64,000 nucleotides of DNA from a bacterium (GCA_963662285.2 CAXXMV010000008.1:864001-928000); one strand, 5' to 3'. Shown: positions 40,090 through 49,961, numbered from the stretch's first letter. A program made the numbers and translations. The notes: generated by a model from the sequence alone, not told the origin.

Positions 40090-41106
40090 CTAATAACTTT
40101 CCTCAGTAATCTCCGTTTTGCCTCTAAAGATATAGTAGATCACCGCCGTATAGGCGATCACCATCGGCATTCCAATCAGCGCGATGACCAGCATTACTTT
40201 TAAGGTCAGGGGCGTGGATGAGTGGGCGTAAACTGTCAGGCTATAATCCAGGTTGGTCAGGGATGGCACCATCCGGGGATAGAGACTTACTCCGGTCAGA
40301 CCCAGGGTTCCCGCTATCATCACCGATGATGCGAGAAACGCAATACCATAACGCGCCGCCTTAATTGTAACCGGCAAATAGGCGATGGCGCCCAGCATGG
40401 GTAGGAATACCACCCAGAAACTCCACTTGGACAAAATGCCGTCAAACAGAAACGGCGCCGCGAAGAAGGTCGATATAGTGGCCAATACATAGAGGATGAC
40501 CGAGGTCATCCATGCACCGTTAGCCCAACCCTGCATTCTGGATTGTAGATCGCCAACGGTTTTGATCGCCATATAGATAGCGCCATGCATGATGAAAAGC
40601 GATAGGGTTAAAAGCCCGATAAGGATGGCGTAGGGATTAAGCAAACCGAGAAAACTACCTGTGAAAGTATAGGTTTCATTCAAGGGGATTCCCCGCAGAA
40701 TATTGCCTAAGGCCACGCCAAGCAATAGGGCGGGCAGCAGGCTGCCAATCCCGAACATCCAGTCGAATAGACGTCTCCAAACCGGGCAATCTACCTTTCC
40801 GCGGAATTCCATTGACACAGCACGGAAAATCAGCGCGGCCAGAAGCAGCATCAGGGCTATGTAAAAGCTGCTGAAAACCGTGGCGTAAACCGGTGGAAAC
40901 GCGGCGAACAGCGCCCCGCCTCCGGTCAGCAGCCACACTTCGTTTCCATCCCACACCGGACCGATAGCATTGATGTGGATGCGTTGTTCATTATCATCCC
41001 GTGCGAAAAGGCTCAATGCTCCTACGCCCAGATCGAAGCCATCCAGGATGGCGTAGCCTGCGAACAGGACTCCTACTAACAAGAACCAGACTGTGTTTAA
41101 ATCCAT
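40090..41106 (-). CDS. cydB: Cytochrome bd ubiquinol oxidase subunit II
   Basis: LDGFDLGVG, GPVWDGNEVWL, RAVSMEFR. Confidence 0.97.
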   Translation of the reverse strand: MDLNTVWFLLVGVLFAGYAILDGFDLGVGALSLFARDDNEQRIHINAIGPVWDGNEVWLLTGGGALFAAFPPVYATVFSSFYIALMLLLAALIFRAVSMEFRGKVDCPVWRRLFDWMFGIGSLLPALLLGVALGNILRGIPLNETYTFTGSFLGLLNPYAILIGLLTLSLFIMHGAIYMAIKTVGDLQSRMQGWANGAWMTSVILYVLATISTFFAAPFLFDGILSKWSFWVVFLPMLGAIAYLPVTIKAARYGIAFLASSVMIAGTLGLTGVSLYPRMVPSLTNLDYSLTVYAHSSTPLTLKVMLVIALIGMPMVIAYTAVIYYIFRGKTEITEESY

Positions 41107-42446
41107 CAGACCGTCACCTCCTCAACCGAATCCTTTACGGGACCTTCTTTAACTTCACGTATAAAGACAAAGAGATAAAGCGCTCCGAGGAAGAGGTAGA
41201 TTACGCCGAACAGCACGATGGAAAAGAGCACTTCTCCTGCTGATACCGTAGGTGAAAAGGCATCGGCTGTTCTGAGCAAGCGATATACCACCCACGGTTG
41301 ACGACCCACCTCAGCCACAATCCAGCCCAGTTGAGTAGCGATTAAAGGTAATGGAATAGCAGCGACCAGGATGGTAAGAAACCATCTGGTTTCCCACAAC
41401 ACGCCCCGGTAGAGTAGGAAAATCCCGAATGCCATCAAGCCGATAAACATGGTTCCCAGAGCCACCATATTATGGAAGGAGACGAAGGTTAAAAAGAAGG
41501 GAGGCCGTTCGTTTTCGGCGAAGGCGTCCAGACCTTTGACTTCGGCATTGATATCTCCATGCGCCATAATACTCAGCACGCCGGGAATTTCGATAGCGCC
41601 GATAAGCCGCGGCGGATTATCCAATGGAATAGCGAATCCCAGCAATGGGGCGCGGGTCTGGGTTTTGAGCAGTCCTTCCATAGTGGCGAATTTCTCCGGT
41701 TGGGTTTTGGCGACCTGGATGGCGTGTTCATGACCAGTGGGAAAGGCTGTCGCGACCGAAGCGATAAATCCGATGATCAAGGCCAGTTTCATTGAACGCC
41801 TGGTGACATCCATATCTTTTTTCTTAAGCGCCCAATAGGCCGATACGCCCGTTACCACGAAGGCGCCGCAGACAATTGTGGCGGCGAAAGTATGGAAAAA
41901 CCGCACCCAGGTTGAATCGTTAAATATGGCTTGAGTAAAGCTGGTCAGTTCAGCCCGGTTGTTCTGAATGATGTATCCCGCAGGAGTCTGCTGCCAGGAA
42001 TTGGCGGCGATGATCCAGAACGCGGATATAGTGGCGCCCACAGCAACCATCAAGATCGAAAACCAATGGATACCTTTGGAAACGCGCTTGCGTCCAAAAA
42101 GATACAGACCAAGAAAGGTTGATTCCATAAAAAACGCAAAGACGCTTTCCGCAGCCAAAGGCGCTCCGAAAATATCTCCCACGAACTTGGAATACTCTGA
42201 CCAGTTAGTTCCGAATTGGAACTCCATCACGATGCCGGTCGCCACGCCGACCACGAAGGTCAAGGCCAGCAATTTGGCAAAGGTGCGGCTCATCCGTTCA
42301 TAGACCGGGTTGCCGGTTTTCCAACTGGCGCCTTCCATCGCAACCAACAGCCAGGCCAGGCCGATGGAAATTGGTGGAAAAAGGAAGTGGAATCCTATGG
42401 TCAACGCGAATTGTAGTCTTGATAAAAATAAGGTGTCCATATCCAT
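41106..42446 (-). CDS. cydA: Cytochrome bd ubiquinol oxidase subunit I
   Basis: RLQFA..FH, EFQFGTNW, QPEKFATMEG, EVGRQPW. Confidence 0.97.
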   Translation of the reverse strand: MDMDTLFLSRLQFALTIGFHFLFPPISIGLAWLLVAMEGASWKTGNPVYERMSRTFAKLLALTFVVGVATGIVMEFQFGTNWSEYSKFVGDIFGAPLAAESVFAFFMESTFLGLYLFGRKRVSKGIHWFSILMVAVGATISAFWIIAANSWQQTPAGYIIQNNRAELTSFTQAIFNDSTWVRFFHTFAATIVCGAFVVTGVSAYWALKKKDMDVTRRSMKLALIIGFIASVATAFPTGHEHAIQVAKTQPEKFATMEGLLKTQTRAPLLGFAIPLDNPPRLIGAIEIPGVLSIMAHGDINAEVKGLDAFAENERPPFFLTFVSFHNMVALGTMFIGLMAFGIFLLYRGVLWETRWFLTILVAAIPLPLIATQLGWIVAEVGRQPWVVYRLLRTADAFSPTVSAGEVLFSIVLFGVIYLFLGALYLFVFIREVKEGPVKDSVEEVTV

Positions 42447-42485
42447 GTTCTTATATTCTCCTTAATGGGATAAAAACCAATGGAT

Positions 42486-48010: not shown

Positions 48011-48044
48011 TATGTCTCATTAAAACATAACTTAATGAGACATA
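48011..48044. promoter_or_regulatory. Putative enhancer-binding-protein site (UAS)
   Basis: Perfect IR tatgtctcattaa-N8-ttaatgagacata about 100 bp upstream of the promoter; related tgtatcatgagaca near 48164-48177. Confidence 0.7.
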
Positions 48045-48197
48045 CATGATCTAACCAATACAGAAACAAAGGATAATTACGCATCATAACTATATATATT
48101 ACAGGTAATTATAGATATAAATCGGATAATCTCATATCGTCATACTGTATAATAAGACATAAGTGTATCATGAGACATGTATAAGGAATATTAAAAA

Positions 48198-49961
48198 TCA
48201 GGATGGATTTTCTTGGAGAAAGCGGTAAAGCGTGGCTCTGGAGACGCCCAATTCACGCGCGGCGGCCTGTTTGTTGCCGGCAGTTTTAGTTAGCGCTTGT
48301 TCAACCGCCTCGCTGGAGAGTTTCCGTTTACGCTGCGCCGGTTCGGACTTATGGGTGGGAGAAAAGGCGTCGTGCGAAGAATGACGGGGAGGAAAATGCT
48401 CTGGATGGATTATATCGCCCTTGCATTTTAGCAAGGCGAACTGAATCCAATTTTGCAATTCCCGTATGTTTCCAGGCCAGTCGTAGGATCGCATAACGCG
48501 CAGGGCTTCATCGGATAAGGTGACGGTTTCGCGTTGATTTTCATCCAAAGCCCGCTTAAGAATATGTCTGGCGATAAGGGGAATATCATCGCGCCGTTCG
48601 CGTAACGGGGGAAGGTATATCGGAGCAACGCAAAGACGATAGTATAAATCCTCGCGAATTACTTTACGCAAATCCTTGTTGGTGGCGCTGATGACCCGCA
48701 CATCCACTTTAACGGTTTTCTCGCTTCCAACGCGCTCAAAGGTTCCCTCTTGAAGAACGCGCAGCAGTTTGACCTGCATTGTAGGGGAGATATCGCCGAT
48801 TTCGTCGAGGAAAATGGTTCCACCATCGGCCAGTTCAAAGCGGCCTTTCTTGTCGCGGATGGCGCCGGTGAAAGCGCCGCGAACGTGGCCGAATAGTTCA
48901 CTTTCGAGCAAACTTTCGGGGAGAGCGCCGCAATTGATAGGTACAAACAGCCGGTCGGCTCGGGAACCTTCACGGTGAATGGCAGCGGCGACCAGTTCTT
49001 TCCCGGCGCCGCTTTCGCCTTGGATGGATACGGAAGCGTTGGAATGGGCCAGGTCGCGGATGGTGTTGAATATCTCAAGCATTTTGGGATCGCGTCCGAT
49101 AATGCCGGAAAATTGCTCGGTCTGACCCAACTGCTTTTCCAGTTCCAACTCTCGCGTTCGGTCTTTTAAGGAGACCAAAATACCTGCGGGGCGGTTCGAG
49201 GCATCGCGCATCAACTTTAGATACATCCTGATTCGGCGAGTTTGGCCATTTTTAGCGCGGATTTTAACTGGCCGTTCTATTTCGTCGAAAATGTGAGTTA
49301 TGCCAGTATTACAAAAATCGCAACGATCCCCGCAGAATCCTCCGGTGAAGATATCGTGGCAGTCCTTACCGATTACTTCATCATGGGCGTAACCTGTGAT
49401 CCGTTCGGCGGCCTGATTGTAATAATAGATTTTGCGGTTGAAGTCGTGGGCGAGGATTCCGTCCGGCAGGTTGCTCAAGATCATTTCGGTCTGGTTTTTG
49501 GTATGAGCGAGCGCCGCCAGATAACCCCGGTCGAGCAAATCATCAACCAAATGCTTGATTTGATCCCGGACGCGTCGAAAGACATCCAGTACAGCTTCAG
49601 GTTCACCTTGCGTCGCAGCGGGATCTTCGAGATTCCAATCGACGCGGGGAGGATTGCCCGGAAAGACCGGACAGATTCCAGCGGCGTGATCGCAAAGCGT
49701 AATGAGCACATCGAAGTCCTGTTCGCCCAGAGAATCCAATGTCTTCGACTTTGCCTGTGAGATATCTATCCCGACTTCCGACATTACCTTAATAGCCAGG
49801 GGATGCACTGGTTTGATTTCGGTTCCGGCGCTCAAGGCGGTGACCCGTCCGTCATTCCGCGCCCGGACATAACCCTCTGCTATCTGGCTGCGGCAGGAGT
49901 TGCCAGTGCAGAGAAACAAGAGGCGGAAGGAGTTTGATTGCTCAATTGAATTATCAGTCAT
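48198..49961 (-). CDS. Sigma54-dependent activator: ArsC/LMW-PTP + PAS + AAA+ + Fis HTH
   Basis: [14 protein letters not shown] with C-X8-C-X3-C-X2-[39 protein letters not shown]. Confidence 0.93.

Follow-up and report, generated by a model that had tools for sequence, protein, structure and literature searches.

Regulators of oxygen defence

Outside a few models, little is understood about how strict anaerobes without PerR or OxyR control their rubrerythrin, superoxide reductase and bd oxidase defences. The present analysis concerns a candidate regulator of such genes and the gene cluster beside it, both found in a bacterial DNA stretch of 64,000 nucleotides (GCA_963662285.2 CAXXMV010000008.1:864001-928000; hereafter the window, from the start of which all coordinates are counted). 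The regulator is a predicted sigma54 enhancer-binding protein (EBP) with an ArsC-like N-terminal domain and a cysteine-rich PAS domain (Cys-PAS). The cluster begins with a small protein of 79 residues, here called orf79, and continues with oxygen-defence genes. Comparison of sequences across genomes makes it most likely that the activator family and orf79 switch on oxygen-defence genes in anaerobic bacteria, and the candidate regulator now comes with a predicted heptamer, promoter, sensor residues and partner.

The PerR regulon of anaerobes comprises similar targets, namely ahpC, rbr and genes for iron storage. PerR itself is a Fur-family repressor acting at sigma70-type promoters (introduction of PMC12754779). 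Passages of the same paper describe PexR of Myxococcus xanthus, an EBP that takes the role of OxyR or PerR by activating ahpC from a sigma54-dependent promoter and has homologs near ahpC and rbr. Sigma54 control of such genes, which a preliminary description of the window had presented as unusual, thus has a precedent. A second EBP to be compared is OrpR (DVU2106) of Desulfovibrio vulgaris, a sigma54 activator whose Cys-PAS binds a [4Fe-4S] cluster and which is inactivated by oxidation (passages of PMC8359166).

A conserved activator module

Across genomes, the activator clade, heptamer sites, a sigma54 box, orf79 and oxygen-defence genes travel together. The explanation that best accounts for the whole, with a probability of about 0.62, is that a Cys-PAS sigma54 clade runs oxygen- and peroxide-defence operons in anaerobes, with orf79 as partner and the ArsC fold as accessory. 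Sigma54 control of the cluster by the adjacent activator, as proposed in the preliminary description, is thereby supported at the level of comparative genomics.

The activator comprises an LMWPc domain (residues 15-143), a PAS domain (about 159-271), a Sigma54_activat domain (287-448), a lid and an HTH_8 domain. The AAA+ module carries Walker A and B motifs and GAFTGA and is followed by the C-terminal helix-turn-helix (HTH; PF00158, PF25601, PF02954). Its cysteines lie in the ArsC/LMW-PTP fold (C18-X5-R24, C90, C97) and in the PAS domain (C201-X8-C210-X3-C214). This architecture, with a complete ArsC domain, had been recognized correctly at the outset; a fourth PAS cysteine, C217, had been overlooked, as had a deletion of five residues just before REDLYYRL (48654-48677, residues about 430-436), despite which R436, D438 and R442 are retained. 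Sequencing error as the cause of the deletion is rejected because three relatives have it too (P0002, P0005 and the ortholog in genome G010). Within the genome that holds the window, it is found in one of 13 matching EBP segments and is missing from the other 12.

A search with activator residues 10-285 gives 105 hits, including 19 other full-length LMWPc-PAS-AAA+ fusions. A junction-pattern search of metagenomes gives at least 120 loci, 80 of them with flanks; all neighbourhood counts for these loci hold among the matches listed. Nearly all listed loci have a domain of 120-150 residues before the PAS, with LMWP-profile scores ranging from none to 186 bits. In 35 genomes of the window's phylum, the sole other match to the pattern is G010, from another genus of the same family, where activator, both half-site clusters and TGGCACAGTTTATGCA accompany the order orf79-ahpC-147aa-dfx-rbr-ZIP-HEAT-ftn-cydA. 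An assembly chimera, the refutation envisaged in the preliminary description, is rejected by the independent occurrence of the fusion in the 19 other proteins, in G010 and in the metagenome loci. Public contigs compared with the region gave fragments that were short and unrelated, and were uninformative.

The neighbours of these activators are informative. The 80 flanked loci include 24 with orf79 and 25 with an oxygen-defence gene, 31 having either, and among the 51 whose downstream flank reaches 1 kb or more, 26 have one or the other. Pfam searches on 104 selected neighbours add DsbD/thioredoxins, cbb3 oxidase, flavodiiron protein, Hcp and G6PD, and find no ACR3, ArsM or ArsR. Direct queries for these three give no real match near the 80 listed loci, where the sole match (L173) is taken to be the domain of the activator itself, and none in the window's own genome. 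The fusions are widespread and at many loci accompanied by orf79 or oxygen-defence genes; no ars operons were found near the homologs, in line with the absence of ars genes first noted in the window.

An independent test was made with the orf79 profile alone on 301 genomes of another, deltaproteobacterial phylum; a genome scan with generic AAA+ words, which retrieved mostly unrelated activators, was used only as entry to this phylum. The profile gives 29 hits in 26 of the 301 genomes, and the names of the sources suggest that other phyla have it too. A co-oriented AAA+ gene lies upstream of 15 hits, and 21 have rbr, dfx, rd, an ahpC-like gene or cyd within 1.5 kb. A Cys-PAS profile, for which 14 candidates per genome were scored, matches in 24 of the same genomes, 19 of them with orf79. 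In four further genomes with orf79 the clade activator has a swapped PAS, which brings the orf79 genomes with a clade activator to 23 of 26. The 15 orf79-adjacent activators comprise three with an ArsC fold, eight with PAS-AAA+-HTH only, two with a divergent PAS and two of MEDS-multi-PAS type. In a FastTree tree, the AAA+-HTH cores of clade activators group on a single branch (SH 99) that is separate from 10 other EBPs.

Upstream sites and the sigma54 box

The GG-N10-GC box, present on the minus strand as first described, is by itself no better than chance: the window holds four matches at one mismatch, against 13.2 expected. Support for the -24/-12 element is comparative. The genome has 260 sigma54-like sites, and no other than this has two or more TGTCTCA-type half-sites upstream. 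A sigma54-like box is found at 18 of 21 orf79-adjacent loci compared with 6 of 38 others; one or more half-sites occur at 21 of 21 compared with 6 of 38. The predicted promoter lies upstream of ahpC and beside the regulator gene. Since the window's genome (G000) has rpoN, cognate box, upstream sites and sigma factor are all present for the activator at the comparative level.

The perfect 13-bp inverted repeat (IR) of the preliminary description is real. At 90% its arms can be lengthened to 20 nt, the 7.3-Mb genome has a single TGTCTCA-N10..24-TGAGACA, and the repeat is conserved in G010. A distal half-site pair, initially overlooked, recurs with the same spacing in G010 and in several Desulfobacterota loci. 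In 53 regions upstream of orf79 there are 103 exact TGTCTCA/TGAGACA heptamers compared with 2.4 in shuffles, with varied spacing and concentrations around -90 to -145 and around -200 to -290, the spacers ranging from 0 to 24 across loci. The strict N16 spacing is found, apart from the window and G010, at only 1 of 63 metagenome loci (L165; L142 does not have it). The 13-bp IR is accordingly rejected as a binding unit; as far as sequence conservation goes, the unit of the putative site is the heptamer TGTCTCA, not the 13-bp arm.

The Cys-rich PAS and a proposed mechanism

By analogy with OrpR, the Cys-rich PAS beside the AAA+ domain most likely reads the signal, with an Fe-S cluster or a metal. 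The cysteine triad is found in 20 of 20 fusions retrieved without selection for cysteines and in 120 of 120 PAS-only homologs, which are mostly close relatives; its presence in 77 of 77 junction-pattern rows is built into the search pattern and is not counted as evidence. The fourth cysteine, which lies outside that pattern, is kept in 61 of the 77. All 15 orf79-adjacent activators have a Cys-rich PAS beside the AAA+ domain, with C-X8-C-X3-C in 11 and C-X9-C-X5-C-X2-C in four. These four (L255, L256, L259, L262) are clade activators as well, two of which add MEDS and extra PAS domains. The likeness to OrpR suggested earlier is borne out, C201, D203, C210 and C214 having the spacing of OrpR C52, C61 and C65 with an acidic residue at 54.

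In the mechanism proposed here, the activator would bind TGTCTCA half-sites arrayed at 90-290 bp from the -24/-12 promoter, on its upstream side, and would drive the operon that starts with orf79. The PAS domain, modelled on OrpR, would hold an Fe-S cluster or metal, and in its holo form would restrain the ATPase until oxidation or loss of the cofactor releases the AAA+ domain. Judging from the targets, this polarity, in which oxidation or loss means ON, is fairly likely. As the first product of the operon, orf79 would bind the activator or handle its metal and so close a feedback loop, a step for which the chances are evenly balanced. The ArsC fold would be an accessory, fused early and often decayed or lost, without which the system works.

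orf79: partner or effector

No Pfam or NCBIfam family and no other profile matches orf79. Its family, which now gains a context, counts 743 clusters at 50% identity with members of 70-80 residues. The model is a helical hairpin (pLDDT 89), for which fold searches return generic hairpins only (best Z 8.9) and no solved structure or specific fold; encapsulated-ferritin hairpins are among these unspecific matches. Five residues stand out in 148 aligned rows: D39 (144), C42 (146), D51 (148), E63 (141) and H67 (137). In the model, one and the same helix has C42 at one end and H67 at the other; for both to share a metal site, two subunits would have to pair in antiparallel fashion. As side observations, genome G016 has a second orf79 copy 17 kb from the operon at locus L270, and in G010 a multi-C2H2 zinc-finger-like open reading frame (ORF; L098:1984-2553) lies between orf79 and ahpC.

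Three lines of evidence bear on a partnership with the activator. orf79 heads operons whose other genes differ wholly (cyd-only, cbb3-only, rbr/dfx). In genome G171 (L230:733-1764), a dead ArsC fold and a Cys-PAS are fused in frame to orf79 without AAA+ or HTH; this fusion sits between the HEAT gene and cydAB and probably arose by deletion of AAA+-HTH. Complex prediction for orf79 and activator residues 10-530 scores 0.52 compared with 0.00 for the best control, with at least 97% of contacts agreeing between runs and a partner pLDDT of at least 85. Of 157 solved complexes 116 pass the mark used, as do 2 of 215 mismatches, and passing scores of up to 0.60 belong to 18 solved complexes and both mismatches; the support is weak, and the modelled physical partnership stands at about even odds. 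Co-occurrence, one sensor fusion and the complex score together make orf79 a candidate metal-binding feedback partner.

The odds lean somewhat against the alternative that orf79 is an effector only, a small iron or metal store or ferritin-like half-bundle, co-regulated as first gene and making no contact with the activator. Its conserved D/C/E/H residues suit a metal site, the ferritin hairpins among its fold matches fit such a role, the G171 fusion resembles a deletion product, and 5 of the 24 Cys-PAS genomes have no orf79 match. This alternative does not account for orf79 remaining first when the other operon genes differ entirely, for the clade activator in nearly all orf79 genomes, or for a complex score that is weak yet above controls. 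A broader version of the partnership, rather unlikely as a whole, would see a two-part oxygen sensor replacing PerR/OxyR in several phyla: a Cys4-PAS activator plus orf79, with inter-subunit metal sites at D39/C42 and E63/H67, orf79 docking to reset the activator or relay iron/redox status, and ArsC as a swappable pseudo-enzyme or thioredoxin-reading input.

Objections and alternative sensors

Several observations weigh against the Cys-PAS explanation. Neither orf79 nor an oxygen-defence gene is present at 25 of the 51 loci whose downstream flank reaches 1 kb or more, so that targets are unseen for half the activator family. The Fisher value for co-occurrence of orf79 and Cys-PAS, 4e-20, is overstated because the genomes are kin and not independent. 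Genome G016 (L270, G016:C92; 82% complete) has the operon, sigma54 box and half-sites and no adjacent or detected activator ortholog. In favour of the explanation, the window's genome gives no FUR match, even with Fur proteins of 11 relatives as queries, and no LysR HTH match, but at 92.5% completeness these absences are suggestive only, and the missing FUR is no proof. FUR is matched in 32 of 35 genomes of the phylum, and both G010 and G016 combine the operon with Fur-family genes. The window's activator, in which five otherwise conserved AAA+ residues are missing, may have little or no activity; retention of the deletion across genera argues for tolerance. The four PAS cysteines could bind structural Zn. 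The scatter of intact ArsC residues described below suggests selection on that domain in some lineages. Finally, no Cys-PAS with this spacing other than that of OrpR has been tested; OrpR is ON in the reduced state and OFF in the oxidised state, and the window's PAS shares both its cysteine spacing and its acidic +2 residue (passages of PMC8359166).

The corresponding alternative, that the activator is ON when reduced and its cluster intact, pre-loading the cell with defence enzymes, and OFF when oxidised, is improbable. It would accord with the many anaerobes that express rbr and dfx without oxygen. The targets, however, include the oxygen-consuming bd and cbb3 oxidases, and the fourth cysteine sets the activator family apart. 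Moreover, OrpR Cys mutants and a PAS deletion are constitutively ON (passages of PMC8359166), from which it follows that destruction of the cluster would give activation. With intact OrpR ON when reduced and constitutive once its cysteines or PAS are removed, the comparison is compatible with either polarity in the present system.

The ArsC fold was first held to be a thiol or peroxide sensor. Its model superposes on B. subtilis ArsC 1jl3 with a TM(target) of 0.93 and an rmsd of 1.7, and the window copy has the marks of thioredoxin-type ArsC: a C-X5-R P-loop (CTGNSCR), two resolving cysteines, a DP motif and the LMW-PTP fold. Its TIGR02691 score, 134.9, falls under the equivalog cut-off of 174.3. 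In 77 aligned rows, C18 is conserved in 28, R24 in 31, C90 in 35 and C97 in 47. The 31 rows with oxygen-defence or orf79 neighbours include 10 intact domains, 19 without C18 and 8 with none of C18/C23/C90/C97. The domain is absent from 12 of the 15 orf79-adjacent activators, most of which have the same kind of targets, and the P-loop cysteine is kept in none of the three that have the fold; PAS-only homologs give 557 hits. The intact set occurs in 23 of 82 rows scattered over a quick tree, whose well-supported branches force at least seven changes. The order of events is only suggested by such quick and FastTree trees; an early ArsC fusion followed by repeated decay and one loss fits them. Judged on these sequences, the ArsC fold is an accessory domain, an optional extra and not the core sensor, and the window's own intact copy may tune or modulate the response.

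It is accordingly unlikely that a peroxide- or thioredoxin-linked disulfide relay through C18, C90 and C97 gates the activator as a second sensor beside an Fe-S PAS. The relay would explain the intact C18-R24-C90-C97 set in the window and its scattered persistence, the thioredoxin-type fold, the better retention of C97, which by ArsC chemistry we take to be the thioredoxin-facing cysteine, and the frequency of thioredoxin/DsbD genes as targets (13 loci among the matches listed). The window's genome also has no other ArsC, its only other LMWPc domain belonging to a phosphatase-RpiB fusion. With the catalytic residues decayed in most relatives and the domain absent from 12 of 15 activators, however, a dual thiol sensor finds poor support as the mechanism of the family as a whole. 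C18 and R24 are each kept in a minority of rows, all four cysteines are missing at eight loci with oxygen-defence or orf79 neighbours, and the pattern is also compatible with slow decay of an ancestral fusion. Natural variants, with ArsC intact, dead or absent and PAS swapped, make each proposed input testable.

The ArsC fold also occurs in other fusions. PhoR-like histidine kinases with an LMWPc/ArsC domain make up 27 of the 105 hits (P0022-P0070); in the four checked the domain is C-terminal and the FLCTGNSCR loop intact (4/4). At L266:9060-10001, a flavodoxin/FMN-reductase-LMWPc fusion directly follows the DVU0298 HEAT gene in an oxygen-defence cluster whose activator has no ArsC fold; the ArsC-activator fusion could have arisen in such a context.

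Very improbable is oxyanion sensing, in which the intact P-loop would bind arsenate or phosphate and couple arsenic or phosphate status to the operon, or the domain would moonlight as an arsenate reductase: the window's intact CTGNSCR, the kinase fusions and an ArsP_1-family permease in the G010 cluster speak for it, against which stand the loss of the P-loop in most relatives, the BASS/PanS-like nature of the sole SBF-family protein and the negative ACR3/ArsM/ArsR queries.

The gene cluster

The coordinates are collected in Table 1. The 11 ORFs (minus strand, 40090..47865), promoter, IR and activator all stand where the preliminary description had placed them.

Table 1. Features of the activator locus and the oxygen-defence cluster (window coordinates)
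Feature	Position	Strand	Basis or remark
Sigma54 enhancer-binding activator, 587 aa: ArsC/LMW-PTP fold, Cys-PAS, AAA+ (GAFTGA), Fis-type HTH	48198..49961	-	profile matches
ArsC/LMWPc domain, residues 15-143; C18, R24, C90, C97, D113	49533..49919	-	profile and structure model
Cys-rich PAS: C201, D203, C210, C214, C217	49149..49487	-	candidate Fe-S/metal redox sensor
AAA+ domain and lid, without five residues (xxGxF) before REDLYYRL	48357..49103	-	deletion common to relatives
Distal half-site pair, TGTCTCA and TGTCTTA, 18 nt apart	48153..48177	-	motif scan
Proximal putative upstream activating site: 13-bp IR, core TGTCTCA-N16-TGAGACA	48011..48044	.	repeat scan
Predicted sigma54 -24/-12 promoter TGGCACAATTCATGCA (GG-N10-GC)	47899..47914	-	motif and comparative support
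orf79, 79-aa helical-hairpin protein without name; first gene of the operon	47626..47865	-	no Pfam/NCBIfam family
ahpC, peroxiredoxin	47002..47589	-	AhpC-TSA match
147-aa probable ferritin/rubrerythrin-like protein	46492..46935	-	no Pfam match; feature likeness only
dfx, desulfoferrodoxin (superoxide reductase)	46037..46417	-	TIGR00320 above cut-off
rbr, rubrerythrin	45200..45772	-	NF045767 above cut-off
rd, rubredoxin	44677..44838	-	PF00301
ZIP-family metal transporter	43767..44591	-	PF02535
DVU0298-family HEAT protein	43034..43744	-	NF045662 above cut-off
ftn, non-heme ferritin	42486..43004	-	PF00210
cydA, cytochrome bd oxidase I	41106..42446	-	PF01654
cydB, cytochrome bd oxidase II	40090..41106	-	PF02322, TIGR00203

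Profile searches match nine of the 11 co-oriented ORFs to named families (AhpC-TSA, dfx_rbo, RuberyRbr, Rubredoxin, Zip, DVU0298/HEAT, Ferritin, Cyt_bd I and Cyt_bd II), which secures the names first given to them. The name 'ferritin-like' for the 147-residue ORF has behind it a feature-level likeness to rubrerythrin/ferritin-like clusters, Pfam giving no match, and the ORF has a 90% identical ortholog in G010; the 79-residue ORF is without family. The term 'regulon' suits co-oriented oxygen-defence genes, but amounts to a single gene cluster in the window. The DVU0298 HEAT gene is found again in clusters of the same type in G010, G171, G204 and G301, and by tblastn the defence genes match in the window's genome here alone, except for rbr and ahpC-like paralogs.

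The gaps at 44932-45122 and 45825-46022 hold a REP-like dispersed repeat with 302 blastn matches genome-wide; this 107-nt direct repeat is rejected as regulatory evidence. A terminator-like hairpin with a T-run lies at 44898-44880. Given the repeat-bearing gaps and this hairpin, a single transcript across the whole cluster is putative. An Rfam search of 39000-51000 gives no match, and scans for sigma70 promoters and terminators remain at chance level. Beyond the cluster and convergent with it, a TerC protein fused to a PGPGW domain (37394-38692) lies alongside a Na+/H+ exchanger.

Comparison with known systems

Searches of the literature outside subscription papers found no description of the ArsC-PAS fusion, a TGTCTCA regulon or orf79, nor is a regulon of this kind mentioned in passages of PMC4641369 or PMC12316311. 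Unlike PerR, the regulator here is a sigma54 activator, in a genome without a Fur-family match. Compared with thioredoxin-coupled ArsC of the pI258/B. subtilis type, the window copy shares the fold and all catalytic residues; it differs in being fused to an activator, scoring under the TIGR02691 cut-off, lacking ars context and being mostly degenerate in its family.

In PspF-PspA and NifA-NifL, an activator has a separate negative partner, and PspA is likewise a helical hairpin. A similar logic is proposed for orf79, which would be a co-regulated partner restraining the EBP. Unlike PspA and NifL, orf79 has 70-80 residues and a conserved D/C/E/H set, and no sequence match was found.

PexR has a metal-binding GAF sensor, divergent transcription, aerobic hosts and ahpC/katB as targets (passages of PMC12754779). 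In contrast, the activator described here is co-oriented and upstream, with anaerobe-type targets (dfx, rbr, rd, cyd). It gives no GAF match: profiles identify LMWPc and PAS in its N-terminus, and a fold search gives ArsC and PAS/LOV.

OrpR, compared through passages of its published description, is closer in its sensor: both have PAS-AAA+-HTH, C-X8-C-X3-C with an acidic +2 residue (C201, D203, C210, C214 here) and anaerobic hosts. OrpR has its own site GGGCGYRTTTTGCGCCC, a GAFTDA loop and flanking orp operons. Neither that site nor orp operons were encountered here, where the conserved upstream motif is TGTCTCA and the neighbours are oxygen-defence genes. The present family, unlike OrpR, has GAFTGA, usually a fourth cysteine, often an ArsC fold, and orf79 as companion. 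The activator is thus PexR-like in output and OrpR-like in sensor and a member of neither group, being set apart from OrpR by description; it apparently represents a widespread and hitherto undescribed family of sigma54 activators.

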